Below are positions 23,136-58,300 of a stretch of DNA of 64,000 nucleotides, in pieces. Location of the stretch: the NCBI GenBank assembly GCA_002441245.1, contig DJVP01000005.1, positions 66,303-130,302 on the forward strand, read 5' to 3'. The stretch comes from Candidatus Omnitrophica bacterium UBA6253 (GTDB lineage Bacteria; Omnitrophota; Gorgyraeia; Gygaellales; Profunditerraquicolaceae). Made by a program: the position numbers and the translations under genes. Position 1 is the stretch's first letter. The number at the start of each line of letters is the position of its first letter. The notes below the pieces were generated by a model, which was not told where the DNA came from, did no database searches, and saw only the letters and a program-made list of their open reading frames with translations.

Positions 23136-23144
23136 AATACAGAT

Positions 23145-36593: not shown

Positions 36594-36944
36594 GTGCAAA
36601 GGAAGGTTATCTTGGCTGTCAAATTATTTTTACTTATATTTTGCGGCATAGGTGGTTATCTTTTAATTTCTAATTTGATGCTCAAGGAATCACTTAAGAA
36701 GATAACTAAGGCGGTAACAATTGTAAAAAACAAAGACCCCCAGAAGCATAAGAAATTAGAAGAAGACATAAGAAGAAAAATGGAGGAAAAATACCGGGCA
36801 GATATGATTTCTTATAAAGTCGTGATGAAGAGACTAAAACAGGAGCAAGACAGGCAGAAGAATTCATCTGGAAAGGTAAATACTTTGAATAAAAAGGATA
36901 AAGCAGGAGCCGTAAAAAAGGAGGCTATAGATGGACCTCGGTAA
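36594..36944 (+). CDS. Small single-pass membrane coiled-coil protein with a GTG start. It has a paralog in the C-terminus of 37794..38786.
   Basis: TM helix LFLLIFCGIGGYLLISNL. The motif KMEEKYRADMISYKVVMKRLKQEQDRQK matches LEEKYRADMVSYKATAMRLQEIEKKDREK at 38680-38770. Confidence 0.5.
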   Translation: MQRKVILAVKLFLLIFCGIGGYLLISNLMLKESLKKITKAVTIVKNKDPQKHKKLEEDIRRKMEEKYRADMISYKVVMKRLKQEQDRQKNSSGKVNTLNKKDKAGAVKKEAIDGPR

Positions 36945-37533: not shown

Positions 37534-37565
37534 AAAACAGGTAAAGTACCACGTACTATTAAAAT

Positions 37566-37739
37566 TTGACAAATAAATATAATATGTTATACTTTTATTG
37601 TGACAGGAACAAAAAGATCCGAAAAGGTAAACTCATAGTAATATGGGGGCGCAAAGCCAAGGGTCCTGAGGTTAAGGATAGCCAGGTTGCCGAAGATTAG
37701 GATTTACCCCGGTTGGTGAGTTTACCGGGGTTTTTTTTT
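37566..37739 (+). ncRNA. Candidate small RNA or cis-regulatory leader of about 140 nt. It has its own sigma70 promoter (TTGACA-16-TATACT) and an intrinsic terminator (CCCCGGT...ACCGGGG + T9).
   Basis: Promoter at 37566-37593, predicted TSS near 37600. Terminator stem at 37707-37713 / 37724-37730, T-run at 37731-37739. GGTAAACTCA (37625-37634) is complementary to TGAGTTTACC (37717-37726), which overlaps the terminator 3' arm and gives a possible antiterminator. Not assignable to a known RNA family by eye. Confidence 0.45.
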
Positions 37740-37793
37740 GAAGAAAAATAAAAGTACCACGTACTTTGTGAGAAAAAAGAGGTTAAAAGCAAA

Positions 37794-38786
37794 ATGCCAA
37801 GGCTGCCGAGGATAAATTTAGAAGGTGCGCTGTATTATATAACTACTAAGGCAGATTATAAACTTAATCTTTTTAGGGATGATAGCGATAAAAGTCGCTA
37901 TCTTTTTTTTATCTTTGAATATAAGGGGCTATATAATTTTAAATTGTATTCTTTTGCCCTGACCTCTAATGAAAGCCACCTGCTTATAGAGCCTTCCCAG
38001 CAGTTTACTGTTTCCCAGATTATGCATGATGTGAATGCCAATTATACAAAATACTATAATAAAAAATATGAAAAGAAAGGCCATCTTTTTGAGGAAAGAT
38101 TCAAGGCAGTCTTGATTGAAAAACAGGGGTATTTGCTTGAGATGACCCGTTTTGTGCACCGCATTGTTTTAAAAGACAATCCACCGTTGCAGTTAAAGGA
38201 TTATAAATGGAGCAGTTATTTGTCTTACCTAAAAACTGAACAGGATAAAAATATTAGCGCCAATGTTGATTGCGAAGAAGCCTTAAATTTATCCTCTTTG
38301 CCTTTGGAAGGCAGGCATGCAAAGTACCAGGAGTTTGTGGAAAAGGCCAGCCTGACTGACCTGGAGGCTTTTGAAAATAAAATGTACAGGGCCTCTGTTG
38401 TAGGAAGCGAAAAGTTTGTGGAAAGGATAAGGGAGATTTTAAAAGCCGCCGCGGAGGCAGGGCAGGAACAGCCGGATGGGAACGCGGAGTTGTTCCTGGA
38501 AAAAAAGAAAAGAAGCCTCATGGTTTATATTTTAGTTGTTTTTATATTGGCATCCTTAGGGGCAGGCAGTTTTCTTCTTTCGGGTAACGCAAATCTAAAA
38601 CGCGAAATTAAAGAGGCCGCTTTGGAAAAAGATGAGATTTTTGCAAAAGATATTATCGCCACAAAGAAAGAGATCAGCAGGGAGCTAGAGGAAAAATACC
38701 GCGCGGATATGGTTTCTTATAAGGCTACTGCGATGCGGCTTCAGGAGATAGAGAAGAAAGACAGGGAAAAAAGGGAGAAACTATGA
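37794..38786 (+). CDS. Fusion protein: an N-terminal IS200/RAYT-like (Y1 HUH) domain with a degenerate HUH motif, a TM helix, and a C-terminal coiled-coil segment paralogous to 36594..36944.
   Basis: NESHLLIEP aligns to the IS200 HxH box (hIHmLlEiP) but reads Ser-His, not His-x-His. The RAYT-like distal region is HLFEERFKAVLIEKQGYLLEMTRFVHRIVLKDNPPLQLKDYKWSSY. TM helix MVYILVVFILASLGAGSFLL. Shared motif EEKYRADMVSYK. Confidence 0.6.
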   Translation: MPRLPRINLEGALYYITTKADYKLNLFRDDSDKSRYLFFIFEYKGLYNFKLYSFALTSNESHLLIEPSQQFTVSQIMHDVNANYTKYYNKKYEKKGHLFEERFKAVLIEKQGYLLEMTRFVHRIVLKDNPPLQLKDYKWSSYLSYLKTEQDKNISANVDCEEALNLSSLPLEGRHAKYQEFVEKASLTDLEAFENKMYRASVVGSEKFVERIREILKAAAEAGQEQPDGNAELFLEKKKRSLMVYILVVFILASLGAGSFLLSGNANLKREIKEAALEKDEIFAKDIIATKKEISRELEEKYRADMVSYKATAMRLQEIEKKDREKREKL

Positions 38787-39205
38787 CCTGTGATATGGAT
38801 AAAAGAGGCATGGGGATATTATTCATCTGCGCCTGTTTTATTTTATGCCTGGATTTAGTTTTTGCCAAGAATGAGGTTTATGATGTTCCTGATCCTAGCA
38901 AGTTGGTGTTAGAAGCCCAGAAGATGGTATCAGTTGGAGAGTTGGCAGCTTATGAGCAGTTACCCGTAGAGGAAAGCTCAAGAGATGGCTATTGGTGGAA
39001 TAAACAAGATAGAGATGAGAAACTGGAATATGTCAAGGGGCTTATTGCAGGGTTTAAGCTGACTGACAAAAAACTTTCAGCAAAGAAAGTAGTTAGGGTT
39101 CTTGACAGGGAGTATAACCCCAGGGATAACCCCCTGGATATTAAGATGGATAAGAGCGTAGAAAGGATGTTTAACATTGTCATTAAGGAGATGATGTTAA
39201 AATGA
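38783..39205 (+). CDS. Hypothetical secreted protein.
   Basis: Signal peptide MGILFICACFILCLDLVFA. Overlaps the upstream gene by 4 nt. Confidence 0.45.
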   Translation: MTCDMDKRGMGILFICACFILCLDLVFAKNEVYDVPDPSKLVLEAQKMVSVGELAAYEQLPVEESSRDGYWWNKQDRDEKLEYVKGLIAGFKLTDKKLSAKKVVRVLDREYNPRDNPLDIKMDKSVERMFNIVIKEMMLK

Positions 39206-39720
39206 AAGCAGCCATATTGATTTTAACGGTTTATGCTGCATTTTTATTGGCGTTTCCAACCAATACTTATTGTGAGGACAGTCCGTCTTCGGGTGTAATT
39301 ATAATTGGTTCTTCCGAGGCCAGTTCATCTGAAAATCAAGGTTCCGAGAATCTTTCTTCCGGTAGCGAAGACTCTTCTAAGCCGGCGGCAGATGAACCAG
39401 CTGCCGCTCTTCTTTATGAGATTAGCGGCAGCAAAATAGGAAGTACCAGAGTTTCGCAGGAGGTCACCCTTCCATCAGCCGGGGAGGTTATGTTTGTAGA
39501 TGCCGGGATAACAGGAGCTTGTACCATTGTCCGGGTTGATAAAAACGGAAAAGAAACGCAGGTGTTAAACATGATCCCGGATCGGGCGATTGGGCAAAGG
39601 CTGCCTAAGGGTACTTATAAAGTGTACCCTGAGGATTTAGATGGCAGTTTTCCGCTTGATAAACTGACGGCAAAAGTACAGGTTAAACTGATTGAAGGTA
39701 CAACAGGAGGCGCGCAATGA
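39202..39720 (+). CDS. Hypothetical secreted protein with a Ser-rich linker.
   Basis: Signal peptide MKAAILILTVYAAFLLAFPTNTYC, then a Ser-rich low-complexity segment (SSEASSSENQGSENLSSGSEDSSKP) and a beta-rich C-terminal domain. Overlaps upstream by 4 nt. Confidence 0.45.
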   Translation: MKAAILILTVYAAFLLAFPTNTYCEDSPSSGVIIIGSSEASSSENQGSENLSSGSEDSSKPAADEPAAALLYEISGSKIGSTRVSQEVTLPSAGEVMFVDAGITGACTIVRVDKNGKETQVLNMIPDRAIGQRLPKGTYKVYPEDLDGSFPLDKLTAKVQVKLIEGTTGGAQ

Positions 39721-40376
39721 GGAAGATATTAATATGCGTAGTCTCATTATTGATGCTGTTTCTAAATGCAGGCGTTATTTATGCAGGCGCCTTTTTATCT
39801 CCGGAGAAGACAAAAGGGGCCCTCAGGGAAGAGATTCCCAATGAGGGTTATGAAAATGATTCAGCGGATAAAAAAAAGGCTTTTGAAAATTTTAAGGCTA
39901 CAAGAAAACTGTTATATGAAAAAATGATTAAGCGCACCGGCGACTGCAGGGATGAGTTGGATAATATGTTTCTTATGGTAAACAACCTTTTTAAAAAGGC
40001 TCGCGAGGAAAAAGATATTAAAAAAGAAAAAGAGCTGGTTACGGTGATGAGCGATTATAACAGCGTGCTTGGTGACTTGGGGCTTATGCAGGTAGTTTTA
40101 GACCTGGGGAAATTCGCTGAAGGCGATAAGTTTATAGAATATTATGTGGTTATGGAAAACGGTTTTGAGCGGTTGAAGGGAAACTTCAGCTTAAAAAATG
40201 AAATATTCTTGGGCAGGATAGATGCTTTAACGAATCAGGATGCCTTGCGTTATGAGAAAAAGCTCTTAAGGATCTATAGGGATTATTTTGAGTATGATCC
40301 AAAGATTGACAGGATGGTTGAGATAGAAGATGCGCCTAAGCAGGAAAAAGGCAAGCTTAATAAAAGGGGAGGATAA
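39717..40376 (+). CDS. Hypothetical secreted alpha-helical protein.
   Basis: Signal peptide MRKILICVVSLLMLFLNAGVIYAGA. Overlaps upstream by 4 nt. Confidence 0.45.
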   Translation: MRKILICVVSLLMLFLNAGVIYAGAFLSPEKTKGALREEIPNEGYENDSADKKKAFENFKATRKLLYEKMIKRTGDCRDELDNMFLMVNNLFKKAREEKDIKKEKELVTVMSDYNSVLGDLGLMQVVLDLGKFAEGDKFIEYYVVMENGFERLKGNFSLKNEIFLGRIDALTNQDALRYEKKLLRIYRDYFEYDPKIDRMVEIEDAPKQEKGKLNKRGG

Positions 40377-40378
40377 AG

Positions 40379-43300
40379 GTGTCCGGGCGTAATCTAAAGA
40401 ATATAGGTATATATCTTGCGATCTTAGCCGCAGCTATCTGTTTGCCGGGCGACCGTTTAAACAGCGCGGATGCGCTTTATACATTTACCCAGTCAACCTG
40501 GAGCGCTGGCCAATCCTCTGCAAGCGCTGTCCATCCTACAAACCAGTCAAGCTGGGACTCTTATTACTCAAAAGATGATTATGCAACTACCACGGAAACC
40601 GACGGGTATTTGACTCTTGCTCCTGATACAGCTACTTTAACCGATACTACGGATGTGGATTTTGATAAAGGTGAGATGGAAAAGGTGGTTGTGGATGGTA
40701 CCGGCAATGATGCATTGTTACAGGTTACTCCTTCTGTGGCAGATCCGTTTGCCTCAACACTCGGAGAATGGCTTACCCTGCCTGCGCAGCCAAGGCCGGA
40801 CAGGTTTACGGTATTTTGCCGGGCAGGCACGGTTGTATATTGCCTATTTGCAACAGGAGACGGAAGGCAGTTCGGGAAATTTATTCCGGCTACGGGAAAA
40901 TGGGTAATGCTTGCTCCTTTACCGGCGCCGGCTGCTGCCGGCTGTTGTATTGCCTGGGACGGAGAGGCGGTTTTTGCCTTGCGCGGAGAGGGTTCTAAAC
41001 AGGTATATAAATACACCCCTTCAACTGATACCTGGGCGGTTTTTACTTCTTTATCAAAGGGCGTAGAATACGGGGCGGCAATATGCGCCACAGGGATTAT
41101 TTCTACCAAGGTGGGAAAATTATTTGTCCTTTTAGGCGGCAATACCACAGATTTCTTATGTTTTGACCCTACTATAGGAACATCCGGCGTATGGAAAGGC
41201 GCATCCAGCGCTCCGGCAACTGTAGAGGCTGGAGGCAGGTTAGTTTATCCGGGCTCAGGGAATTACATTTATGCCTGCCGCGGCCAGTCAACAAGTACTA
41301 TCTGGCAGTATAGTATCTCTGCTGATGCCTGGGATACAACGACTCCGGATCTTCCCGTACCAACTGAAAGTACAGCAGGTTATGAAGCAAGGATGTGGAG
41401 CGCCTCAAATATGTTTTGGCCGGGAACAGGGGATTATATATATGCGGCTATGACATATTATTGCTATAACAAGTCCAACATAACTAATTACCAGACATTC
41501 TGGCGCTTAGGGCCGCTTAGCGGTACGCCTGCATGGGAAAGGCTGGCAGATTGCCCGCGTTATACCGATAATAAAGGGTTTATTTTATATGACCCTGACG
41601 GCGCTGGAACAGAGATACAGCTTCTTTCAGGAAATAACTATACCAATCCCTGGCATTATAATATTGCCAAGAATAGATGGAAGGAGTTAACTCAGCCTCT
41701 GTGGAATTCATCCAGTTGGGGTAGGGATATATATTGGGTAAAGAACCATACTCATTCAGATATTGTTTTAGGCTCAGACGGGTTTGATTATATATGCATA
41801 CTCGATCATACTTCCAGTAATCAGACTAAGCCTGTAACCGGGGCCTCATGGGAGACTTACTGGAGGAGGTTAAACCCGTATGATACAAAATCCTGGGCAA
41901 CAGGCACAGTTTATGCAGAAGGGGATATAATTACAGGCACAGACAGCCTTGATTACAGGTGTATAAGGCGCCATTTATCAGCTGATACAAATAAACCTAT
42001 AACCGGGGCTTCATATTCCACATACTGGCAGACCCCTGCCGTAACTACAAGAGGCTCTGCCTGGATAAATGCCAAGGCTTATGTATCCGGGCCTTATGAT
42101 GATTATCTCTATTGGTGGGGAGGATATTATAATTACAATTTCTGGAGGTATAAAATATCAACGGATACATGGGAGCGTTTGGCTGATTTGCCCTGGAGCG
42201 GCAGTTATAGCGGTGCGAATATGACAGATATAGGGGACGGATATTTATATTTCCACAGAGGGAATAACGGTTATAATTTCGCGCGTTATAATATGTCGAC
42301 TGATGTATGGGAGACGCTTACAGATTCACCTAATTCTGCCGGTTTTGTCTATGGTTTTGGGGTGATAGGGGTTATATCAAAGGCTGACCGGGTTCTAGGC
42401 AGTGATGGCCTTGGGTATATATGTAAAAAGAGGCATGTCTCAAGTACACTTAATAAGCCTATAAGCGGGGCTAACTGGGCAAAATATTGGGAGCTTAATG
42501 GCTCGACCACTGATTGCGTTACTTGGGTTGAGTCTAAGGATTATGGCCCGGGATTAGAAAATATCAAGCCGTCAATAGTAGTGGGTACTGACGGTAATGA
42601 TTACCGGTGCATTAAGAATCATATATCCGCAACTTCCAGTTGTCCAATTACCGGCACAACCTCTACCTGGCAGACTTATTGGGTTGCTACAGGGACAACA
42701 GGGCAGGGTGATACATGGGCAAGCGGAACCATGTATAACTCGCGCACCGGCACAGTTGGCCATTATAAATTTATTTTTGGATTTCCAGGTTATAGCACAT
42801 CTTATTGGTACCGGTATGACCCGATAGATAATACCTGGCTTACTTGCGAAAATGTGATTACTTCTATTTATGGAGGTGAGGCTACTTGGACAGGGCTTAA
42901 TGCTCCTGATAAAGGAAGATATATTTATCTGGAACGAGGGCATGGGGGTACATATTTCTATCGCTATGATATTGAAATGGATGGCTGGGTCCGTAAAACA
43001 GATAGTTTTATCCCTACCTATTATCATTATTCGGCAGGAGGGCTGGCAAATGACGGAAGCTCTCAATATATTTACCATTTATCCGGTTATCATGAAACGC
43101 CTTATGATTACAGGCTTGAGAGGTATGACACATCAACTGATTCCTGGAGCGAATTTGCTTCCTTACCGTTTTGTTCTATATACAGGGCTGTATGCCAGAC
43201 TCCGGATGCTATATGGGCATCCCCGTATTACGGCAATGACCAGTTGATGAAATACGATTTGACAAAGCCTACGCATAACCAGCCGGGTATTTGGGAAGAG

Positions 43301-46300
43301 AGGGTGTATGATACCTGTTATTCGTCTTATGCTGATGGTAATATCGCGGTGGACAGTAACGGGTATAATTATATGATCTTTGGAGATATGTATTATTATA
43401 CAAACAGTAATATATGGATTTTTGACACAAATGCAAAGCAGTCAAAGATAGTGGGAAGCGATGGCGCTGATTATGATTGTATCTTAAGCCATACCTCCAG
43501 CGCTGATAATTACCCGACAACAGGGGCAAATTGGACAACTTACTGGCAGACATCCCGCTCAACAGGTAAAGGTGTAATATGGACAGATAGCACAGGGTAT
43601 TATTGCTCAAAGCATGCCAATCGCTGGAGCGGTTTGATCAGGGCGCCGTTTTATCTGGGGCCGGGCACCAAAGGTCAGTATATGGCCAATGAGAATTCTA
43701 TATATTTCCTGGAAGGCAAGAATACCAAATATGTATGGCAGTATGATATTACTAATGACCGCTGGTTAAGGGCCAAGGATACCTTGACAGTTGTAAACAG
43801 GGGTTCTGAATTAACCGGCGGATGCGGGGTGAATATTTCAGGACATGAGAGCCCGAGGGATGTGCTTTTTTGCCTCGGAGGTAATGGTGCAACGCAGTTT
43901 AACCTGTATTTTGTCGAGCCGGGGTATGATTACTGGACCTCTTATCTTTCTGCGCTTGACGGCCACTCTTATAGGGGCACTAACAGTATGACGTATTCAT
44001 CGTATGACAACCGGGTATATAAATTGCGCACAGAGATTACCAGCACTTGTTATGTATATAACCCGGAGCAGGATACCTGGGGTACGATTAACCCGGTAGG
44101 TACAGGAGGCTCTTCAGGCACCACTTATACCTGTGATGAGTCAGCGGTATTATATTACCCTAATGACGGGCAGAAATACGTGTATTGTATGACAGGAGAC
44201 GGCAATTACTCCCTTCTGCGTTATGATATAGATAATTTAACATGGGAGGAATTGGAACCGCCGCCTGCGGTTATTTCTAGTTATGGTTCGGCAATGTCCA
44301 GCGTGGGAAATGATTATATATATATATTTAATGCTACCCAGATGGATTATCTTTTCAGGTATCATAAGACTGAGAATGAGTATGATATACCGGCATATCT
44401 TCCGGTTGCCCTTGATGAAGGAGGGGTAATCTGCGGGTATAAGGGGAATATATATTATTTGTGCGGAGATTCAGGGGCATTCTATAGGTTTAATATAGGC
44501 CAAAAGAAATGGGGAGTTTTGGCAACCTGCCCTTCTACTATGCCCAATGAAGACCCATGTATGAAGGCAGTGGAGTATGAAGGGGATGTAAGTATCTACG
44601 TAACCGGAGGCCAGGGTACGCAAACATTTTACAGGTATTCTGTGGCTAATGATGCCTGGGAGACATTGGAGCCGCCTTCTTATAGCTGGGGCTGGGGCAA
44701 TGCGATTGAACATGTTTATGGCAGCAGGTATATTTACGCTATGCGCGGCGGGGCAGTCAGTTTTTGGAAATATGATATAGCAAATAATGATTGGGATACC
44801 CTGGCTGATCTCCCGACTACAGTAGGCAGGGGCGGCGCGCTTACATATCCTGATAAAGGTAATTATCTATATGCATTATCAGGGAACAGGAGTTCAAATT
44901 TCTACCGGTATAATTATACCACAGATACATGGACTACTCTTAATCCCTGCATGGTTAAGATCCTTGATTCGCACTCCGAACTGATATATCCGGGGTTCGG
45001 CAATTACCTGTATGTATTACACGGCTCAAGCTGGGGGGATAGCTATGAGTCTTATACTTATATGAGGTATGAGATAAAATCGGATGGAACAGGTACCTGG
45101 AGCGAGCTTGCTCCGGCCTCATTCGGGGTTGACCATCCCGGCAGTATGATCTGGCCGGGTGGCGAATATTATTATGCCACCAAGGGTAATGGCAGGCTTG
45201 AGCTTGCCATGTATTATGCGTTTTGTTATGGCACTTACATTTCAGGTATAAAGCCGGTAGGCGCCCATTCAGGGTGGGGTAATGTCAGCTGGACCTTTAA
45301 TGACACACAGGCAGCTGAGGTGTCTTTCAGGTCAGGCAATAAAACGGATTTATCAGATGCGCTTAGCTGGGACTTGTGTTCGGATATAGTGAATGGGGCT
45401 GACCTAAGCACTGCCTCCTCAATCAGCGCGCAGGATGTATATATACAGTATAAAATAGGGTTTTCTACTGATAATCTTTTACAGCTTCCTAAAATATCAG
45501 ATGTAAATATCAATTATGAGTTTTATCCTCTTAAGCAGGAGGTTGTTTCTTCGCCTTATAATACCTCATTTGCCACTAACAGGCTGGTAAAATTTGAATG
45601 GGCTGATCAGCAACTGACAGGAACAGATGTACGTTTTAAGATACGTACCGGAGCGGACCTGGCAAGTTTATTAACCGCATCATGGTATGGCCCGGCAGGC
45701 ACAACCATTGAACAGTTTACCTTCAATGATAAAGAGGATTATGTGGCAAATTCAGAGGTTTTCTTTACCGGAAGCTCAATAAAATTATACAAAAAACTGG
45801 CGGATTTTACCTATTCTGAAACACTCTATGTGGATAATACCGGGGGCGCGGCAAAGACTGATTCTGTAGTAAGCATTATTATTTCATCAACTAACAATCA
45901 TTTCTGGAACCATATAAAGTCAGACGGAGCGGATATGCGTTTCCACGACGGCACGCAGGAGTTGAGCTATTATCTGGTTAGCTTTGACAGTGTGAATAAA
46001 GTAGCAGAGATAAACGTGCATTTTCCCAGTATAGGAGCAAATTCTATTAAAACTTTTTATATGGTTTATGGCAGCGAGGATGCCTTGTCCGCAAGTGACG
46101 CCACTTATGTGAGCAAGCCCGGGGACGGCCTTGTGGGTTATTGGAAGTTTGATGAAGGCGCAGGGCTTATGGCGTATGATTCTTCAGGAAACGGCAATAC
46201 CGGGGCGCTGTATCCGACCACCAAGAATATGCCTACCTGGGATAGTAATGGCAAGTACGGTTCCTGTATTTATTTTGACGGTATAGATGATTATGTCAGG

Positions 46301-49300
46301 GTGACTGTGCCGGATTTAGGCACTGATTATACTATGGCATTCTGGGGTACAATAGATGAGGTGCCTATAGCCAGCAACAGTTGGCAGGCAGCTATGGGTT
46401 CTCAAACTAGCTATCCGGTTGTCTGGTTAAATCCGAATAACTGGATGTACCATTACTGGTATGATTCCAAGAATGCCAGCCATGGAGATAATTTCTCATA
46501 TCATACAAAAAGGGATGAAGTCTGGAGGCATTATGTAGTAATTCATGATGCTTTGGGATACCGGGCATATACAGATGCAGCTTTAAATCGCGATTACAGA
46601 AGTTTTATCTATACATCCAGGGATGTGCCAAGTATGCAGTGGGATTTTGGTCGCTATTTCAATAGTACTTCCTATAACTGGAAAGGCAAACTTGATGAAA
46701 TCGTCCTTTATAATAAGGCATTAACAGGCATTGAGGTAGGTTATTTATATCAGGGTATATCCAGGGATTTTACGTATGGAGTAACCTTTGGGAGTAATGA
46801 GACAGATGCAACATGCGCCAGTTTAGTATCCGGAGGCTGGCAGAAAAAGATTCCTGTGCAGGTAACTAATGCCGGAGGTTTAAAAAGCAATGCCATCATA
46901 AGGATTGATTTAGGCAAATGGTATGAATTCTGGGCGCATGTAAAGAGCGACGGAAGCGATATCCGCGTGGTGGATTCGGATGATTCAACAGTTTTAAGTT
47001 ATTATATCCCTGAATGGGATTATGCTAATAAGAAAGGTTTTGTGCTTGCCAAGACAGCCTCGCTTGCGGCATCCAGTACAAAGACAGTTTATATTTATTA
47101 CGGCAACAGCAGTGCGGTATCGGCTGCTGATTCATCCAGCTTTATGGGCCTAGAGGAAGGTTTTAACAGTTGCAACCAGGTTGCAGGTGATTCTACTGCG
47201 CTTTCAGGATGGTTGTATAAAATTCCGCTTATGCTTAAGAATGATTCAGGCGCTCCCCAGGGGCAGGCATTGGTAGTGGGTACGGACGGCAAGGATTATA
47301 AGTGTATTAAAAGCCATAGCTCTACTACTTTTGATAAACCGAATGTAGGGGCAAACTGGGCAACATACTGGCAGGATAATTCCACTACCGGTAAAGGGGT
47401 TACCTGGGCTACCGGGATTGCGTATAGCAGCAGCCCGGCTGTGGTCAGGGTGGATATGGAGGATAGTTGGGATAATTTCTGGGCAAATGTAAACAGTGAT
47501 GGTTCGGATGTCCGGATAGTAGCATCTGACAACGAGACGGTAATGACGTATTTTCTTGATTTCTTTGACGCGGACCTTAAGCAGGGCAGCTTTTTGGTAA
47601 GCGTGCCTTTTATTAATACCGCAGCCGAACAAAAATATTGGTTATACTACGGAAAATCCGATGCCACCTCTTTGAGCACAAACAGTTTTCTCAATCCCCT
47701 TAAACAGGTTTCCAGTACTCCCACGCAGGTATCGCGTTCAGGGGCAACATTTAACCCTGACTGGCAGTATAAGATGGATTTTACAGTAAGCAATGTGTCA
47801 ACAGACCCGGATAATGTTGTAAACAGGTGTGTCAATATACAGATACCTTCTACCTGGACGAGTTTTTGGTCCAATGTGCGCTCTGACGGCGGGGATATCC
47901 GTTTTTATGACGAGAATGTAACTTCAGGTGACCCCACTTACCTATATTATGATATTGATTATTTTGATTACGATAAAAAAACCGCCAGTATTGATGTGCG
48001 CATCCAGAGCCAAAATACAGTCCCTATAACTACCTGGCCAAGGACAATATCCCTTTATTATGGAAACCCATTGGTACTTACCGACTTTAATAATATATAC
48101 AACGCTTACGATCTTTATATGTACAGTGCTGTAGATGAAACAAGATTTACCGCAGGAGGCGCGGCAACATCCGATAAATCACCCATTATAAATCAAGGGT
48201 ATGTTACCTTGTATAACAATAGCGATGCCTGGGATTCTTATATTAAATGGAACGGAACAGCCTTTGCAAGGACAGCAGGCAGGACCTTCCAGGCAAAGAT
48301 ATACCCTAGTTATAACGCCCAGGTAATGATTGGCTGGAAGGATAATGAAATCGGGGTATCGTATTCAAACCTCATATATGGGATTTATTTTAACAACGGT
48401 TCAATGTATATCTATGAAGACGGTTCAAACGTCTATAGCTGCGGCACATACATTAGGGATACCTGGTATGATATCAGGATAGAGCTGAAGGTAATGGGCG
48501 CGCTCTATTATTACAAGAAATCCGAAGATGTGGACTGGACGTTACTTTATACTTCTACGTATTCAACAGAAAGCAATTTAAGGCCGCATATAGTCAATGA
48601 TAGAAGGGATTATTTTACGCGTACGACTGATTGGAAGGTGTTCTTGAATATGACGTATGATGTAACAGTTGGCTTGGGAGACATCATAAAAGGAATTACC
48701 AATACCTTCTCTCTTAATGAATATTATCAGGATAATCCGGTTATTCAGCCTTTAGGCGGTGTTTTTTATGACAGTAACCTTGCTTCTATTGTTGAGACAT
48801 CAACTGTCCCGGCGGGATCCGGGCTAAAACATCAGATTTCCCCTGATGCCTGGAACTGGTATTGGTATAACTCTACGGCCATAAGCAAGGTGGTGGGCAC
48901 AGACAACAAAGATTATAAATGTATATTAAGCCATACCTCAAGCGATTCCACCAAGCCTATAACCGGGGCCTTATATGAAACATACTGGCAGGATAATTCT
49001 ACTACAGGTACAGGTTCTGTCTGGGCCAGTGGAACCGCGTACAATAGTATTTCAACAGGCTGGAACCTGGCTACAGCCGGCTATACGCAGGCAAATACCG
49101 GAGCGGAGATTAATACAAACCTGGCAAGCTTCCAGACTTTATTCCCATCAGGGTCATTAAATTTCAGGACATATTTGCATTCAAATGACGGTACATATAC
49201 CCCTGAATTAGATAATATTGCTGTGGCTTTAAATGCTTCAGAGACATTTTATACGGCAAAAGATGGAGCTGACGCGATTAATGCTTTAAATTGCGATATC

Positions 49301-52300
49301 GCCAACGATCAATGGGTGCAATATAAAGCTATTCTTTATTCCGATGGCCGAAATACGCCTACTGTCAGTAGTGTTACTTTGACCTATACTGACGCCTGGC
49401 TGAATATAACCGCGCCTAATGGCGGGGAATCCTGGCTTGAGGGGACAGCCCACAATATTACCTGGACATCCCAGGGCATAGACGCAGGGGCAAGTAATGT
49501 AAAATTAGAGTATTCCCCTGATAATGAGGCAACCTGGAAAACGATTATTGCCTCAACTCCTAATACCGGTACTTATACCTGGACGCTTCCTAATGACCCG
49601 GGTTTATTAACCAAAGTAAGGATTACCAGTATTGAATACCCTAATGTAGTTGATAAATCAAATACAACATTCAGGTTGATGGGCGCGGAGATTACCTCTC
49701 CTAATGGCGGAAATATCTGGGAATTAGGAAGGAGCCATGCGATAACCTGGAATTCAGGAGGGACCCTTGGTTCAAGTACCTTAAAATTTGAGTATTCAAT
49801 TGATGGCGGTTCTACGTGGGTCTCTCCGGAAATTGCCTCCGGCCAGACAGATGACGGGGATTTGACCTGGAATATTACAACGAGCACTTCTTACGCATCA
49901 GATAATGTCAAGGTGCGTATGACAGATACAGATAATACGCAAGTGGATGATTCTTCAGACGCGGTGTTTGCTTTGGTGCCGCAACCGGCAATTACCTTTA
50001 CTTACCCCTTGGGGGCAGAGCAGCTAAAGGTAGGAGCGCAATGTAATATTACCTGGACCACGAATTCACAGCAATTCGGCAGCCAGTTTGATTTGTATTA
50101 TTCCAAAGACGGTTTTACCACAGAGACATATATAGCAACAGTATCTTCCGGAGCTCCTGCTTCACCGCTTACCCCGAACACAGATTTATCATGTTCTTAT
50201 GCCTGGACTGTCCCGGATGACTTAAGCGATAATGTTACAATCAGGGTAAGGGAGGTTTCCGTCCCGACGGGAAGGGACACGACTACAAAGGTTTCGAAGG
50301 TTTCTTCAATATTCGAAATCGTTGACCCCAAGATCACCCTGACGTCGCCTAATGGCGGGGAGTTATGGGTAAAAGAGGAAACCAATAATATTACCTGGAC
50401 TTCGGAAGGAACTATACATAGCGGGAGTTTAGCTTTGCAGTATTCTATGGATGGAGGCAGTAACTGGATAACTATCACAGGCTTTGACGGGATCAATGAC
50501 GGCCTTTTTGCCTGGACCATACCTACGGATGCGGTATCGGATTTATGTAAGGTCAAGATAAAAGATACCGCGAGGACCACAGTCAGCGATGTGTCCGATA
50601 ATACTTTTAAGATAATCCCGAGCGCGACAATAGAGGTCAGGAGCCCTAACGGCGGAGAAATCTGGACAATCGGAGATACCTATACTATAACCTGGGCAGT
50701 TGCGGGGCAAATTACAGGCCACGATGTAACAATTGAATATTCCAAAGATAATTTCGTTAACGATATCAACCTTATCAAATCATCCACTCCCAACGACGGT
50801 TCGGAAACCTGGGTAGGGGTGCCTAATGATCCGTCCGCGGATGTAAAGATCAGGATAACCAGCATACAGGATCCGACTATTACGGATATATCCGACGCTG
50901 TCTTTACTATATGTACTTCCGGGATTACCGTGATATCCCCTAACGGGGGAGAGTTATGGGAGGTGCGTAACGCAAGCGACGCAACCCAGACAATCCATAA
51001 TATTAAATGGGTCTCCGGCAGCGGAGTCCCCGACGGGACTACGGATATCGTGCTTAAGATGTCTACAAATTCCGGCTCAAGTTATGATACTACTATAGCC
51101 ACAGGCAGGGCCAAGACCGGGTTATATCCATGGTCAGTGCCGGATAGCGTAAGTTCCCAGGTTAGAGTAAAGGCGTATTCGTTCGGTACTCCTACTAAAA
51201 CAGATGAGTCAAATGCTGATTTTTCTATTGTGCCTGTCCCCAAGATGACGATTACCTCGCCGTTATCTACCGGATTAACTGTGTGGAAGGTAGGCGCCTC
51301 TTATAATATCACTTGGACTAAGGTAGGGAATTTATCCAGCACAGTTGACCTGTATTATTCAATTAATGGCTCTACCCCTACTACTGTAATAGCAAAGGGT
51401 GTTTCTAACTCCGGAACGTATAGCTGGAGGGTGCCTAATGTCGGCCTGACCAGCCTTGCCAAGGTTAAGGTCATTGAGTCTACTATTCCTGTTAGAGATA
51501 CTATCAAAAAGATTGAAAGCACCTCTTCAGTATTTACTATTGTAGACCCAACTCTTACAATTACTTCTCCTAATGGCGCCGCATCTATAAATGATGCTGA
51601 GGCCTGGGTGCAGAGTGAGCAAAATTATATTACCTGGACACCGGATGGATTAGTGTCAAACGGCCTCCTAATAGAATATTCGAGGGATTCCGGCTCCAGT
51701 CCAACCAGGTATACTATTTATGACGGTATTGTCCCGGGTACGGGATTGACTCCCGGATCAAATTATGCCCGGGCTGTAACTATTAATAATACCGCTTCCG
51801 CTTTAAGCCTTGAAAATTATCAGGTTAAATTTACGCTTGATACCAGTTCTTTGATCTCAGCGAAAATGCGTGCGGATGGCTATGATATTATGTTCGCTGA
51901 TGAAGATGAGGTCTGCCCGTATTGGATTGAGCCGGGTACTATAAATACCACTCAAACTAAAATATGGGTGAAGGTCCCCCAGATACCGGCTGGCGCAACC
52001 AAGAAGATATATATGTATTACGGCAATCCCAATGCCACTGTTAACCAAAATTTCGATAATACATTTATAAAAAATGTAATTAATGATGATATCGCAGGGT
52101 ACTGGCATTTTGATGAAGGGGCAGGGACGGTTGCCTATGATGCCAGCGGTACCGGCAGGGACCTAAGTGTAGTAGGGGCTACTTGGCATACGGCTGACGG
52201 AGGAAGATGGAGCACTCAAAAGAGCGTAAGTTTTAACACGGGGTCGTGCCTGATCTTTGACGGAAATGATTACGCGGGATATTCCGACAATATTATTACT

Positions 52301-55300
52301 GATCCGCAGAAATTCAGCGTAGAGGCATGGATATATCCTACAGATGTTACTACTGAGGGGTATATTGTTCAAAAGACCGGCGATACAAGCAGTTATTCCC
52401 TTAAAATAGCCGCAGGAGGGTCTCTGCAATTCTGTATATATGACGCAACTAATACGCCTCAAATAGCTTCGGGGAATGAGGCGCTCTCTGCCGGCATTCC
52501 TTATCATATCGCTGGAACATACGATAGTACTGATGGACTGGTAAAATTATATATAGATGGCGCATTACAGGTTAGCACTGCTACAGCTACTGAGATTAAC
52601 ACTACATCGGCACCGTTTAAGATCGGGGATACTTTTAAGGGAAGGATAGATGAGGTTTCTATTTATAATAAAGCCTTGTCTTTAGCTGAGATAACCGCGC
52701 ATTTTGAGAGAAGGCAATATGCAAGCACAGCTCCGGCTACTCCGGTAGTTGCGGCAGAAGAGCCGATAAATAAATATTTGTGGACTATACCTTCTGATCC
52801 TGCGGACCTATCGCAGTACGTAAAGGTGTATATTACTGACCGCAATACCGTAGTCGGCGGCAGCACGATCTCCGATGCATCCGATAATTATTTCAGTATT
52901 ATCAGTTATCCAAGGGTTATTATTAAGCAGCCAAACGGCGGCGAGGTGCTTACCACTGCGGATTCCTACGATATAACCTGGAGATACGATGGTAATATAG
53001 GTAAGGATACTGATTATATGACATTGGATTATTCTATTGACGGAGGTACTAATTGGGTAACTCCCGCTATAAACGATTATGTGCTTAATAGAAACGGTAC
53101 CTTTACCTGGCTCTCTATACCGGATGCTCCATCTTCGGATGTGCGGGTTAGAATCAGGCATAATAGTGATCCGCTCGTTGTCGATGTATCTGATGCGTCT
53201 TTTAAGATCCAGGGTAAATTAATACTTCCATCAGTGGATCATCTTCCTCAGTTTACCGAGGTTCAGGGGGGGAGCACTGAATATATTTATTGGGATACAG
53301 TAGGTACGATTAATCAGGTAATACTTCAATATTCCAAGGATGGTTTTGTTTCCGACGTACACACTATCGTAGAAGGACTGGCTAATTCCGGCTCTTATTT
53401 ATGGACAGTGCCGCGCGATTGCTCTGAGTCAGTGGAGTTGCGCGTAATAAATTATGTTGATGCAGATGTATATGATGTTTCTGAGGTATTTACCATTAAA
53501 GGGCTTACGCTTACTTCTCCTAACGGATCCGAGAACTGGGCGATAGCTACTGTGCATAATATAACCTGGAGTTCAGTCTCCTTGCAAAGTTCAAACGTCA
53601 AGTTAGAGTATTCCGTAGACAATGGCACAACCTGGGATGAAATTATTGCCTCTACGCCGAACACCGGTTCTTATAGCTGGACTATACCTAATAACGGGGT
53701 CAGTGATGGAGAGGCGTTAGTCAGGGTAAGCGATGCTTCGTTGTCAGGGGTATGGGATATATCAAATGCCAATTTTACCATAACCGCCGGGGCCTTAAGC
53801 GGCATAACTATCCAGCCGGTTTCTAATATTGCCCGCTCAACAACTAATTATAATATAGATTTTACTGTTCAAAGCCCTATACCGGCTGATGGAGATGTGG
53901 AGATAGTTTTTGATGCGGATTATAATATCTCAGCTGCCGCAGTCTCCTTGCCTACGGATGGTACCAGTATTGTCAGCAAGCTGAATAACTGCCTGGTAAT
54001 AAACCTTGCTACTGCAATAGATGAAGGTACTCAATCGGTCTATCAGTACAGGCGGTTAATTAACCTTAGTTCTGCCACCACAATAGCTAATTATCAGGTG
54101 CAGGTTGATTTGACTGCTGCTGATTTTGATTATGGCCATGCTAAATCAGATGGAGGCGATATAAGATTCTATGATACAGCTATGAATACATTGGATTACT
54201 GGATAGAAACATGGGTCAGCGGAGGAACTTCCAAGATTTGGGTAAAGATCCCTAATATCGGCACAACATCATTCTATATATATTACGGAAAGGCTGACGC
54301 GATAACAACATCCAGCATAGACGCTACAATGGATGCGGGGTTAAGATTTAAATATTATGATGGGATTGCCTTTGCGGATCCTTCGTTGGGAAACGCCATA
54401 GATACGGATATCAACCATGATTGGGGTAGTGATGTTGTTTCAATTAACGGGGTGGGAACGGATTCTGATACGCTTAGTATAAGGTGGGAAGGGTGGGTAA
54501 AAAATAAAGGCAGCGGTACGCATAATTTCTATACTACTACAGATGACGGAGCCAGGCTTTATGTAAACGATACGCTGGTTATTAATCATTTCATTGATCA
54601 AGCTGAAACCGAATATGTTGCTGCAGTCAGTCTTTCTTCCGTAGTGCCTATTAAATTTGAATATTATGAAAATACAGGAAGCGCTGTAGCGCAATTAGGA
54701 TGGGCCCCTGCTGATAGCACGGGTAAAGTTTATCCTATACCTTCAACTTATTTGTATTGCCACAAATATTCCGCAAGCGCGCCAACCTTGACTATGGATG
54801 ATGAAACCGCGGTTCCCGCCGGTAAAGCCGTTTCCTTGGTAATCTCTGGTATTAAAAATCCAGCTGCCCAGATAACCGACTCATTCTTTATAGAAACCCA
54901 GGATGCAGAGGATAGGGCGATGGATAGGGGTACGACAGATGGCTTAACAATAGTGCCTGGTACAATATCTCCTACAGTTACTTCTGGGAGTTTGAAGGTG
55001 AGCACTCTAACCAGTTATGGTTTTATTTTTACGCCGGCGCATACGGTTGAAGCAGGTGGTAAGGTAGTGATCGGATTTGATGCCGACTATGATTTAAGCG
55101 CGGTAGGCGCAAGTAATATCACAGGAAATACCGGTGCCACTCTTTCAGTGGATAATAGCGCCAAGATTATAACCGTAAACTTAGGCTCGGGGATAACCAG
55201 TACGGCCACTCTTACTATAGCTAATATCAAGAATCCTCCCTATGTCCAAACCACGCAGGCATTTTCAGTGGCTACAAAGACAGCGGCCTTGAATACAATA

Positions 55301-58300
55301 GACCAGGGGGTAGCGGCCGGCGTGGGCATAACAGCGGGTACATTGAGCAGCCTTTCCGTTTCCGCGGCAAGCTTAGAGGTGAGCGCGGTTACGGATTATA
55401 ACTTTGGTTTTACCACTGAACATGCTTTAGCGGCAGGTCATAAAGTCAGCATTCAGTTTGACCCTGATTATGATTTAACCGGAGTGGGAGTATCTAGCGT
55501 GGGAGGGAACTCCGGCTCAACCGTTAGTGTTAATGGAAATATCCTAACGGTTACCTTGGGCGAGAGTATCCCGGCAACAACCGCAGAGGTATTAACTATA
55601 AACAATATAAAGAATCCTTCTTATGTGCAGACAGTGAACAATTTCTCAATAATAAGCAAGGATCCTAATGAAGAGATTATTGACCAGGCAACTATAAGTG
55701 GTGTTACTACGGTTGCCGGTAATTTTAATGCTACTGTTTCTATATCTAATGTTTCCAGTGATAAAACCGGAGCCACGCTGGTACAGTACACCTTTAATTT
55801 TACTCCTATCCATAGCGTAGCGGCAGGAGGTACCGTAAGGATAGATTTTGATGCTGATTATAATACGAGTTCGGCGAGCCTGATCTCTCCATCCTCTGAC
55901 TATACAATTAATTCAAGAGGGAGTAACTATGTGATATTAAATTTGGTAAATGCTCTTGAAACCGGAGTTGCCGAGGCCATTAGGCTGGGAAACATAACTA
56001 ATCCTGCCTATGTGCAGTCAGTTACTTTTAGTATCAGCACTTACAATGCCTCCGGAAGGGTTGACAGCGGCACTTCGCCAAACTTCAGTATCCTGGCATC
56101 AGTTTTAGTAAATTGTTCGGTTACGCCGTCTTCTTATATTGCCACTGAAACAAGTACTAATTATATTGCGTTTGCCCCGGTTAACCCCCTTAGTATAGGG
56201 GATTTGGTAGAGATTACATTTGACAGCGATTATGTTTTGACAAGTGCTGTTTTCTCAAGCGGTAATAGCGGCGCCACATTAAGTATTTCATCCAATAAAC
56301 TCATTGTTACCTTAGGCACGGCGATTGAAAGCCTGACTCCTGCAACTTTTGCTATTTCCGGAATCAAGAACCCCGGGGCGCAGGTTACGGATTATTATTC
56401 CATTGTTACTAAAAAGTCCACAGGCGAAATCAGGGATGAAAATTCCCAGGTGGCTAAAAATACAATCGTAACGGGTACTCTGACAAGCTTGTCAGTCTCT
56501 TCCAGCACAACCGAGGTAAGCGAAAGGATAGAAGCTACTCCGTATTTAAGCTTTAATTTTACATTGGCACATGAGCTTCCTGTTGGAGGGTATGTTAAGA
56601 TATATTTCGATCCGGATTATGTATTCCAGGTGGATACTTTCTGCGTTACTAATGATTATAACCTTTCCAAAGATGACACAAATAAGATTATCAGCCTGCA
56701 AAGGACAAGTTCTGCTGTGCAGACAGGCGCAACGACTATACAACTGGCAAATATCAAGAACCCGCCTTATGTCCAGACTACCGGGAATTTCTTAATAAGA
56801 ACCGAGCTTTCCAATCAAACTGCTATAGATGTAGGATCTGCAAGCGGCATTGGGATTACAGCAGGTGCATTGACCGGTATTACTTTAACTGCGGATTCTG
56901 CAATTGTTAGTGAATTTACAACCTATGCGTTAGACTTTACTAGCGACCATGCGGTAGAAGCAGGGGGTAAGATCAGCGTTGCTTTTGATACGGACTATGA
57001 ATTCAAATTATCTGGAAGATATGCCTGCGTGGTTTCTATGGTAGATAGCTCTTTAACTATTATAGATATATCGACTTCTGCCGGACCTACACTTGTCTCT
57101 GAAATCTCGGATGGGACAGGAGGATTTACTAAATTAGCCGGCGTTAAGTCAGTTTATGTATCAGGCAATTATGTATATGCGGTTTCCTCAATTGACAGTT
57201 CTTTAACCATTATAGATATATCTACTCCTGCCAGCCCGGTGCTTGTCTCTGAAATCTCGGATGGGACAGGAGGATTTACTAAATTAGACGGAGCTCAGTC
57301 AGTTTATGTATCAGGCAACTATGCTTATGTTGCAGCTTCAACAGATAACGCGTTAACCATTATAGATATATCTACTCCTGCCAGCCCGGTGCTTGTCTCT
57401 GAAATCTCGGATGGGACAGGAGGATTTACTAAATTAGGCGGAGCCAAATCAGTTTATGTATCAGGCAACTATGCTTATGTTGCAGCTTCAACAGATAACG
57501 CGTTAACCATTATAGATATATCTACTCCTGCCAGCCCGGTGCTTAAGTCTGAGGTGTATGATGGGGATGGAGAATTCAGCAGGCTGGCCGGAATTGAATC
57601 CGTCTATGTATCAGGTAACTATGCATATGTTAGTTCTTCAACGGACAGTTCTTTGACTATCATGGATATATCAGACCCGGCTAATCCGGTGCTTAAGTCT
57701 GAGGTGTATGATGAAGACGGGCAGTTTACTAAATTAGGCGGTGCTTATTCAACTTATGTATCGGGTAATTACGCTTTTGTTGCTTCTGCTACGGACAGTT
57801 CTTTGACTATCATGGATATATCAGACCCGGTTAATCCGGTGCTTAAATCTGAAGTTTACAATGGTGACGGGCAATTTACTAAAATAGGCGCTCCGCTTGC
57901 AGTTTTTATATATGGAGATCAGGTTGTTTTTGGCAATAATGCAGGGGCGACAGTTGCATCCAGCGGCAACCTGTTAAACATTACTTTAGGTACTGCTGTG
58001 GGGTCTAACCAGGCTGTCAGCCTGGAGCTAGATAATATAAGGAACCCATATTATGTGCAGACACCAGAGGTTTTTCAAGTGCAGACCAAGAATTCCGCAG
58101 GCGGAGTAATAGATCAGAATCTTTCTGTTGCTTCTACGTCTATCGTAAAGGGTAGCTTTACAGGTTTAAGTGTTGCGGCTGTGGACAGGGAAATCAGCAA
58201 GTCTGATAACTATACATTTACTCTTACTTATAGCCATCCGGTGCCAAAAGATGGTTATTTGAAGATTGAATTTGATACCGACTACGATTTAAGTTCGGCG

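Follow-up and report, generated by a model that had tools for sequence, protein, structure and literature searches.

The gene considered here lies on contig DJVP01000005.1 of Candidatus Omnitrophica bacterium UBA6253 (assembly GCA_002441245.1), in a stretch of 64,000 nucleotides (contig positions 66,303 to 130,302) that was analysed as a whole and is referred to as the window. Its open reading frame (ORF; 37794-38786, forward strand, 330 aa), placed at exactly this position by a preliminary description of the window, encodes a protein with an N-terminal HUH domain of the Y1 transposase type, a helical domain, a transmembrane (TM) helix and a coiled-coil tail. We refer to it as Y1-TM. A riboswitch aptamer for cyclic diguanosine monophosphate (c-di-GMP) precedes the gene, and three small genes and a giant ORF follow it. 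The combined evidence supports, with high confidence, a domesticated and catalysis-independent domain of the RAYT type (repetitive extragenic palindrome (REP)-associated tyrosine transposase), housed in a membrane protein that is part of a c-di-GMP-gated giant-protein operon of the Omnitrophota. The mode of action proposed for it further below is held less firmly.

The Y1-TM protein and its active site

Residues 16-121 of Y1-TM match the Pfam family Y1_Tnp (PF01797) with 37.1 bits (E=3.8e-9; gathering score 23), and the score against NCBIfam NF047646 (REP_Tyr_transpos), 32.6 bits, lies below the cut-off of 80. A phmmer search of the single sequence against the PDB sequences returned no match; with a profile of 40 homologues, E. 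coli TnpA_REP (4er8) was the sole meaningful match in the PDB. An AlphaFold2 (AF2) model computed from 83 homologues (pLDDT 82.3) displays the HUH fold across residues 12-123, in the order beta-alpha-beta-beta-alpha-beta-alpha, followed by a helical domain (142-222), a disordered basic linker and one long helix (242-329). Foldseek places this model closest to 4er8_A (TM-score 0.73 over 149 columns, root-mean-square deviation 2.6), with TnpA of IS608, ISDra2 and IS200 next (TM-scores 0.58-0.67). The Pfam score and the structural match bear out the IS200/RAYT-like N-terminus put forward in the preliminary description, and the C-terminal DYKWSSY signature mentioned there is present at residues 136-142.

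The register of the active site was taken from the family profile aligned to 4er8 and read with the published site of TnpA_REP, which comprises H59-M60-H61, Y115, N119, H123 and E161 (PMC3479197). In this alignment, H59-M60-H61 corresponds to E60-S61-H62 of Y1-TM, the nucleophile Y115 to F120, the metal ligand N119 to I124, and H123 probably to D128. The broken HUH motif of the preliminary description is thus real, with the first histidine alone lost, but its register was not: the triplet is ESH rather than SHL. The counter-case named there, a clean PF01797 match with an intact HxH, was not found either; the Pfam score passes, but the triplet aligned is E60-S61-H62. Two further losses had escaped that description, namely the tyrosine nucleophile (F120) and the asparagine metal ligand (I124). 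With the first histidine, the nucleophile and the ligand all gone, its expectation of catalytic inactivity holds for the window protein, in which covalent Y1 chemistry is, judged from the sequence, excluded.

Y178, G204 and F208 are near-invariant in the helical domain, for which a Pfam scan of residues 146-222 found no domain; Y1_Tnp was the only domain detected in the whole protein, and the OmpR-type winged helix gave no match. Y1-TM has a single TM helix and no signal peptide. Of 80 homologues, 77 have a TM-like hydrophobic window, defined by a Kyte-Doolittle mean of 1.6 or more, so the fusion of HUH domain and membrane helix that the preliminary description suggested searching for is general in the family. 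Lysine and arginine are richer on the N-terminal side of this helix in 52 of 74 homologues. The predicted topology is bitopic and N-in, with the HUH and helical domains cytoplasmic and the coiled coil periplasmic. The HUH domain is basic, with a median net charge of +5 across the family. The tail aligns with the product of an upstream ORF (36594-36944) at 40% identity over 81 aa (BLASTP, E=4e-12), which agrees with the earlier assignment of a TM helix and a coiled-coil tail paralogous to a secretin-operon protein.

The operon leader and the conserved module

Before the ATG of Y1-TM, the leader holds, in order, a first box, a promoter, the aptamer, a terminator, a second box and the ribosome-binding site (RBS), an arrangement absent from the preliminary description (Table 1). 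The promoter hexamers, TTGAC/A at -35 and TATACT at -10, recur upstream of the aptamer in other loci. Among 57 distinct aptamers, in an alignment fitted to the model, pairing holds in 98% of cells, and compensatory changes occur at 13 of 18 pairs (shuffles, 0/500). In 9 of the 10 loci inspected, the aptamer is likewise followed by an equivalent hairpin and a U-tract.

Only two copies of the 15-nt box occur in the window when up to two mismatches are allowed. The second is identical in the close relatives L012 and L013 (L numbers denote our loci and contigs), and its single strand can fold into a 7-bp stem with a 3-nt loop. The strict pattern GTACNNNGTAC has no occurrence in the other loci, and a degenerate, near-palindromic box of 11 nt, [GA]T[GA]CCA[CG]G[CT]A[CTA], came to light once the leaders had been aligned with one another. 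A narrower consensus for the box of the window and its equivalents in L001-L093 reads GT[AG]CCA[CG]G[CT]AC. As a rule, one copy is found 0-12 nt before the -35 hexamer and another between terminator and RBS. The degenerate box is 182-fold enriched (19 matches in the 450 nt upstream of ten loci versus 5 in 215 kb elsewhere), a value computed on the same ten loci from which the pattern was derived; of the 76 independent GTDB loci on which it was then tested, 63 contain the box once or more and 40 contain two or more copies. The box accompanies the promoter/riboswitch unit even where this unit sits downstream of the Y1 gene.

The genomic setting was compared on eleven distinct contigs (L001, L003 and L005-L013; L002 and L004 duplicate L001 and L003), whose homologues share from 90% to about 31% identity with the window protein. 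The contig of L008 stops just past the Y1-TM gene. In each of the ten contigs that continue, zero to three small genes and then a giant ORF come after Y1-TM; the longest giant ORF was called at 12,503 aa. An Rfam riboswitch (RF01051 or its variant RF03167) is found just upstream in 10 of 11, the aptamer of L005 falling below threshold through an insertion. A secretin/TPR module occurs in many of these contigs and is missing from L003, L005, L007 and L011. The setting given in the preliminary description therefore stands for the giant gene and not for the secretin operon: the conserved partners of the Y1-TM gene are the giant gene and the c-di-GMP riboswitch.

A scan of GTDB with one genome per species yielded 80 loci, most of them titled Omnitrophota, on which a covariance model trained on 11 of the aptamers was run. 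The riboswitch lies within 500 nt upstream on the same strand in 65 of 76 evaluable loci (median distance 125 nt) and between the Y1 gene and the giant ORF in 5 more. An ORF of at least 1,000 aa, judged as an open frame within the 10-kb flanks, starts within 4 kb downstream in 50 of the 52 loci that have at least 5 kb of downstream sequence, and 46 of these ORFs are still open at the end of the locus. The module of riboswitch, Y1-TM and giant gene is ancestral and phylum-wide in the Omnitrophota.

Individual loci display further features. In L026, L034, L045, L066 and L087, both riboswitch and box stand between the Y1-TM gene and the giant ORF; the switch therefore gates the giant gene, not the Y1-TM gene. 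L029 (9757-9976) contains three boxes and the conserved promoter with no recognisable aptamer, hence the box system can exist without the riboswitch. The aptamers of L001 and L008 are best described as the variant RF03167 (c-di-GMP-I-GGC), not RF01051, and ligand specificity may differ between lineages with the two types. Those of L005 (9757-9883), L047, L068 and L069 are lengthened by about 45 nt through an insertion in their first hairpin, and score 27 bits, below the Rfam gathering score, but 57-59 bits with a clade-specific model. L091 (MBAA01000064.1, titled Promethearchaeota archaeon CR_4) has a riboswitch of 80 bits and a Y1-TM homologue without a downstream giant ORF, and is probably a misbinned bacterial contig in an archaeal metagenome-assembled genome.

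A search of 5.8 billion proteins returned 105 relatives of Y1-TM. All named ones belong to Candidatus Omnitrophota, most match over the full length, at 99% down to about 30% identity, and public annotation calls them 'transposase' or 'REP element-mobilizing transposase RayT'. The family alignment consists of a constant part (HUH domain, helical domain and TM helix) and two alternative, predicted periplasmic parts. In type a, to which the window protein belongs, this part forms a coiled coil and bears the motif LEEKYRADMVSY; in type b its place is taken by a beta domain (about 110 aa), modelled by AF2 with eight strands and a weak resemblance to the C-terminal barrel of NHBA. The most distant relatives are soluble and combine Y1_Tnp with a C-terminus resembling DnaA_C or a helix-turn-helix (HTH).

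Column conservation was computed on 58 non-redundant members; of all motif columns, the catalytic ones vary most. Position 60, the first histidine of HUH, is His in 40% and Glu in 31%; position 62, the second, is His in 81%. The nucleophile position 120 holds Tyr in 59%, Phe in 28% and His in 12%, and the metal-ligand position 124 holds Asn in 33%. Residues Y14, F27, D32, S74, K86, N89, G96, L98, R102, E109, H122, S141 and G204 are kept in all 58, and H78, N81, Y84, H97, F99, K110 and F208 in at least 97%. Across 79 species representatives, F27, D32, S74, Y84, K86, G96 and G204 are fully conserved, and HUH plus Tyr is intact in 31, most of which also have Asn at +4. In a neighbour-joining tree built without the catalytic columns, the losses fall into at least three separate clades, with HUH replaced by Q-x-N, Y-x-K, R-x-E or S-x-Y and the tyrosine by F, H, A, Q, C or L.

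The ratio of nonsynonymous to synonymous substitution rates (dN/dS) of Y1-TM ranges from 0.045 to 0.145. Within the 'dead' clade of the window, the HUH domain has the lowest values in the protein, 0.045 against L012 and 0.075 against L013, and the linker and TM helix are the least constrained parts (0.17-0.37 or, at the widest, 0.17-0.44). Because the catalytic columns vary while others are invariant, and because dN/dS is lowest in this very domain, the family can do without catalysis but has strictly kept its fold and one conserved face. The dead HUH domain is not decaying; it is under the strongest purifying selection of the protein.

Table 1. Features of the window at the Y1-TM locus and the basis of each assignment.
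Feature	Position	Strand	Basis or remark
Stand-alone TM and coiled-coil paralogue of the tail, 116 aa, motif EEKYRADMISY	36594..36944	+	BLASTP
Small MerR-like HTH protein, 80 aa	37291..37533	+	Pfam MerR_1, E=1.1e-7; ends 10 nt before box 1
Box 1, AAAGTACCACGTACT, core GTACCACGTAC at 37546-37556	37543..37557	+	9 nt upstream of the -35 hexamer
Sigma-70-like promoter, TTGACA-16-TATACT with TG extension	37566..37593	+	11/12 consensus positions
c-di-GMP-I riboswitch aptamer, RF01051	37616..37694	+	59.9 bits (gathering score 35), E=3.4e-9
Intrinsic terminator, CCCCGG...CCGGGG stem and T9	37707..37739	+	Sequence reading, folding
Box 2, AAAGTACCACGTACT, core at 37754-37764	37751..37765	+	Exact 15-nt direct repeat of box 1; between terminator and RBS
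Y1-TM ORF, 330 aa	37794..38786	+
RAYT-like Y1 HUH domain, residues 1-145, catalytically dead, predicted cytoplasmic	37794..38228	+	Pfam, profile, AF2, Foldseek, conservation
Helical domain, residues 146-222, common to soluble TIRYT-like relatives	38229..38459	+	Alignment, AF2
Single TM helix, residues 242-262 (L242-L262), KKKR just before	38517..38579	+	Hydrophobicity
Coiled-coil tail, residues 263-330 and stop, predicted periplasmic; motif LEEKYRADMVSY at 38688-38720	38580..38786	+	Alignment, AF2
Three small ORFs, 140/172/219 aa, signal-peptide-like N-termini	38783..40376	+	Translationally coupled
Giant ORF, 5' part, GTG start after GGGGAGGA RBS, at least 7,874 aa, runs off the window	40379..64000	+	ORF reading

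Downstream, the four small cistrons (Y1-TM and the three that follow) overlap stop-to-start by 4 nt, and the giant ORF begins 2 nt after the last stop, in keeping with the earlier placement of Y1-TM upstream of three secreted proteins and a giant adhesin gene. The three small ORFs are kept in the close clade (L001, L009, L012 and L013) and not beyond it. The 140-aa protein was considered as a universal member and rejected, as it has no detectable kinship to the small protein of the type b loci; the type b small proteins are related to each other. Pfam domains in the giant ORF include DUF2341 (five copies), Laminin_G_3 (two), Kelch, Kre9_KNH, PA14 and Reelin-B, and its orthologue in L012 is called at 7,867 aa.

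Upstream, stand-alone TM/coiled-coil genes equivalent to that of the window precede the riboswitch in L001, L003 and L009. Homologues of the window copy are few, unannotated, and limited to Omnitrophota hypothetical proteins. Among 1.8 billion representatives, the tail module was found only at the C-termini of Y1 proteins or in stand-alone proteins of 87-133 aa. It is reasonable to expect from this pairing of sequences that the tail and its stand-alone paralogue may hetero-oligomerise. Further upstream, the region 32210-36590 encodes an AAA_22 ATPase, a 221-aa protein, a secretin and a TPR/coiled-coil protein, a set present in many, not all, Y1-TM loci; its gene order is reminiscent of a secretin-assembly module of the ExeA/MshM type. 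This set is itself preceded (22143-31685) by a Bat/MoxR-type operon with genes for MoxR AAA_3, DUF58, a TPR-rotamase, two VWA/BatA-like proteins, a TPR protein, BatD and a TPR-SH3 protein. The MerR-like protein was examined as a universal neighbour and rejected, since homologues occur in only 27 of 91 loci (10-kb flanks), a frequency that speaks neither for nor against it as the factor binding the box. Close relatives have a second MerR-like copy at the head of the secretin module.

Possible roles of the inactive domain

The best overall explanation is an exapted RAYT domain, independent of catalysis and tethered to the membrane, that serves the giant-protein operon, and we consider this explanation somewhat more probable than its negation. 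In this scheme, Y1-TM would be a bitopic inner-membrane protein with the dead HUH domain and helical domain in the cytoplasm, one TM helix and a periplasmic coiled coil. Its gene would form the first cistron of an operon driven by the sigma-70-like promoter and gated by the c-di-GMP-I riboswitch with its intrinsic terminator, and the transcript would run on, translationally coupled, through three small secreted proteins to a giant adhesin-like surface protein. As the likeliest mechanism, the RAYT-derived domain would, from its place at the membrane, still recognise a short hairpin or box in a nucleic acid, the first candidate being the 11-nt near-palindromic box around the promoter and riboswitch of its own operon. 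The transcription unit of the giant gene would in this way be tethered or regulated. A pairing between the periplasmic tail and the stand-alone paralogue, with the small beta domain in place of the coiled coil in type b relatives, could make Y1-TM responsive to the envelope or to the state of the secretion machinery.

Nucleic-acid binding at the membrane is the mode of action that we favour, tentatively. Single-stranded DNA (ssDNA) or RNA would be the ligand of the dead HUH domain. R97 of RAYT makes a base contact at the foot of the hairpin (PMC3479197) and aligns with the invariant R102 of Y1-TM; R78 of RAYT aligns with the near-invariant H78, and K82 has been lost. Helix alpha-C has a polar face that does not vary within the family. 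It is the invariant arginine at the RAYT contact, this helix face and the basic charge of the domain that point to nucleic-acid binding, and the conserved box without an assigned binder, together with a variable periplasmic module on a constant cytoplasmic one (a ToxR-type pattern), also argues for it. Y1-TM is the only protein of nucleic-acid-binding type common to all loci. In its most specific form, the proposal makes the dead RAYT domain the output domain of a membrane-tethered regulator that binds the box or hairpin, whether as double-stranded DNA (dsDNA), as non-template ssDNA or in the 5' untranslated region, and that couples envelope or secretion-machine status, through the periplasmic module, to giant-gene transcription or membrane tethering. 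So detailed a version is speculative and, as a whole, rather improbable. If true, it would constitute a transposase-derived, ToxR-like system dedicated to giant genes (24 to >100 kb), atop control by the c-di-GMP riboswitch.

Several points weigh against this scheme, in which every functional step is inferred. The ssDNA hairpins recognised by known Y1/RAYT domains have far longer stems than the 4-7 bp that can form here. Box 1, being upstream of the -35 hexamer, is not transcribed from this promoter, a position more readily explained by a dsDNA operator than by a hairpin target. It is equally conceivable that the MerR-like HTH protein, or an unlinked factor, uses the box as its operator. The box pattern stems from the ten loci lined up at the outset, though it was then tested on independent ones. 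Thermodynamic folding gives no consistent ON/OFF sense for the riboswitch: in the window, the 5' arm of the terminator competes with an aptamer strand, and the same test on nine loci was mixed. The N-in topology is deduced from the lack of a signal peptide and from a positive-inside bias of moderate size. About 39% of species retain an intact catalytic set of HUH, Tyr and Asn, so some members may be nucleases and the ancestral role could have been catalytic. In the window protein itself, E60, H62 and possibly D128 could still hold a metal, a geometry judged from the alignment.

Three of the alternatives receive little weight. An ordinary or decaying mobile element (IS200/IS605, REP-associated or TIRYT), standing beside the giant gene by chance, would agree with the public transposase/RayT annotation and with a Pfam Y1_Tnp score above the gathering score, but it is already contradicted and is the most improbable reading of all. 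The gene is single-copy in the 64-kb window, where no IS200-type subterminal hairpin pair was found around it, the hairpin upstream being the riboswitch terminator. No repeated palindromes of 20-40 nt, as in REP arrays or bacterial interspersed mosaic elements (BIMEs) with their GTAG or CGTC head, lie beside it, the box pair being the only repeat; no TIRYT-type inverted repeat GGGG[AT][CG]A[CG] occurs within 15 kb, the nearest matches being at 22566 and 47928 and their count not above chance. Its stop codon overlaps the start codon of the next gene, and promoter, riboswitch and terminator belong to the regulatory elements that fill the 260 nt upstream. The genomic position is constant from 99% to about 30% identity, with low dN/dS and with the TM helix fused in nearly all homologues. 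The preliminary description was therefore right both in finding no element ends (no subterminal hairpins, no terminal inverted repeats) and in proposing domestication, which the single copy and full-length homologues at the same position corroborate. Scarcely more probable is a 'pioneer' membrane cistron, whose co-translational TM insertion would drag a very long mRNA to the membrane with the HUH domain as a functionless passenger. The gene is indeed the first, translationally coupled cistron, and its TM helix would emerge before translation of the giant ORF; yet the supposed passenger is the most constrained part of the protein, with more than a dozen residues invariant phylum-wide, and the linker and TM helix are the least constrained. 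It is also unlikely that Y1-TM is still an enzyme, that is, a membrane-tethered nuclease or strand-transferase acting on ssDNA or RNA, through the triad in members that have it intact and in the window clade through a rebuilt hydrolytic site (E60, H62, H122, D128) with no covalent tyrosine intermediate. The 31 species representatives with HUH and Tyr speak for it, as do the frequent H62, the invariant H122 and the potential metal ligands E60 and D128. Against it, the catalytic columns are the least conserved and have chemically unrelated replacements in different clades, across which context and architecture are unchanged, and all characterised Y1 HUH enzymes need the tyrosine nucleophile (PMC3479197).

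The main rival is an envelope adaptor or subunit of inside-out signalling, comparable to LapD, in which the dead HUH domain would bind a protein or a small nucleotide (c-di-GMP, pGpG or another dinucleotide), have no DNA or RNA target, and act through the tail or beta domain on export, anchoring or release of the giant protein. We regard it as possible, if doubtful. A bitopic protein whose periplasmic module varies between clades suits such a role, and so do the stand-alone paralogue of the tail, encoded beside the secretin/TPR module, and the c-di-GMP control of the operon. West-Roberts et al. 2023 (bioRxiv 10.1101/2023.11.21.568195) report that the giant genes of Omnitrophota are preceded by a type II secretion-like locus and followed by PilZ genes. 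Moreover, the catalytic residues are lost while the surroundings of the pocket (H78, H97, E109, H122) are invariant, as in receptors derived from degenerate enzymes. On the other hand, none of the known HUH domains serves as an adaptor for proteins or as a receptor of second messengers, the domain of Y1-TM has a basic charge and retains the arginine used by RAYT for DNA contact, the module is accompanied by a conserved cis-element with no assigned binder, and the secretin operon is missing from several loci.

Relation to known systems

A dead Y1 HUH domain with a membrane anchor, fixed phylum-wide at one operon position, appears undescribed in the searchable literature. The survey of the HUH superfamily by Quentin et al. 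(2018, PMC6006769) does not mention transmembrane forms, the giant-gene study of West-Roberts et al. cited above mentions neither a transposase-like gene nor a riboswitch, and a literature search on Omnitrophota and riboswitches found nothing relevant. A 2026 preprint counted transposases flanking giant genes as mobile DNA. As an accessory protein, Y1-TM is encoded universally together with the giant genes; the name 'transposase' in current annotation is a misnomer and can mislead counts in which transposases near giant genes are taken as signs of mobility. The c-di-GMP riboswitch and the conserved box pair add two regulatory parts to the unexplained biology of these genes. Transposase domestication in prokaryotes is known from RAYTs, which stay catalytically active, and from nuclease-dead derivatives of TnpB; the Y1-TM family offers a natural experiment on what the HUH fold is kept for after catalysis is lost.

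RAYT/TnpA_REP (E. coli YafM, 4ER8) is the closest relative by structure and by profile match in the PDB. Both proteins are single-copy, host-maintained derivatives of IS200-type Y1 transposases and share the motifs G-x-L-F/W-x-x-R-F, Y-I-x-x-N-P (in intact relatives) and DYxWSS, with R97 of RAYT matching the invariant R102. RAYT, however, is a soluble, active Mn2+-dependent nuclease with H59, H61, Y115, N119 and H123, flanked by REP/BIME arrays, whereas Y1-TM has E60, F120 and I124, lacks REPs, is membrane-anchored and is tied to a riboswitch and a giant gene. The nearest non-membrane relatives in sequence are the TnpA_REP-like proteins of subclass 2.1, or TIRYTs (Quentin et al. 2018, PMC6006769; Di Nocera et al. 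2013, PMC3733652). Our TIRYT-like relatives (P0099-P0105) consist of Y1_Tnp, a helical extension and a DnaA_C/HTH-like C-terminus, with a serine motif after the core and no REPs nearby. TIRYTs retain the catalytic residues, the HTH C-terminus and the GGGG[AT][CG]A[CG] inverted repeats, and Y1-TM has a TM helix and a periplasmic module in place of the HTH. A C-terminal HTH (Bac_DnaA_C, HTH_23 or HTH_28) was detected in no member of the membrane family, only in the soluble outgroup proteins P0100, P0103 and P0105. From its sequences, the membrane family looks like a TIRYT-type protein whose HTH gave way to a membrane anchor. The TnpA proteins of IS200/IS605 elements (IS608, ISDra2, IS200) share the HUH/RRM-like fold but, unlike Y1-TM, are obligate dimers with intact HUH and Tyr, encoded by multicopy elements with subterminal hairpin ends.

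Functional analogies lie elsewhere. TldR, derived from TnpB, is an IS200/IS605-family protein that lost catalysis, was kept beside host genes and exerts gene-specific regulation of surface structures. We take this concept to parallel that of Y1-TM, but TnpB is an RNA-guided protein of the RuvC type, the regulators derived from it are soluble, and no guide RNA is evident at Y1-TM. Regulators of the ToxR/CadC type would be analogous in their bitopic N-in topology, with a cytoplasmic domain of nucleic-acid-binding type, a single TM helix and a variable periplasmic module, and in a gene that lies beside the presumed target promoter, here with a conserved box pair. Their cytoplasmic domain is an OmpR-like winged helix, and no HUH domain is known in such a role. 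The LapD/LapG-LapA system likewise combines an inner-membrane protein bearing a degenerate enzyme domain with a giant adhesin under c-di-GMP control. LapD, however, is built from HAMP, GGDEF and EAL domains and binds c-di-GMP itself, whereas in the Y1-TM system c-di-GMP is sensed by RNA and the degenerate domain is an HUH domain.

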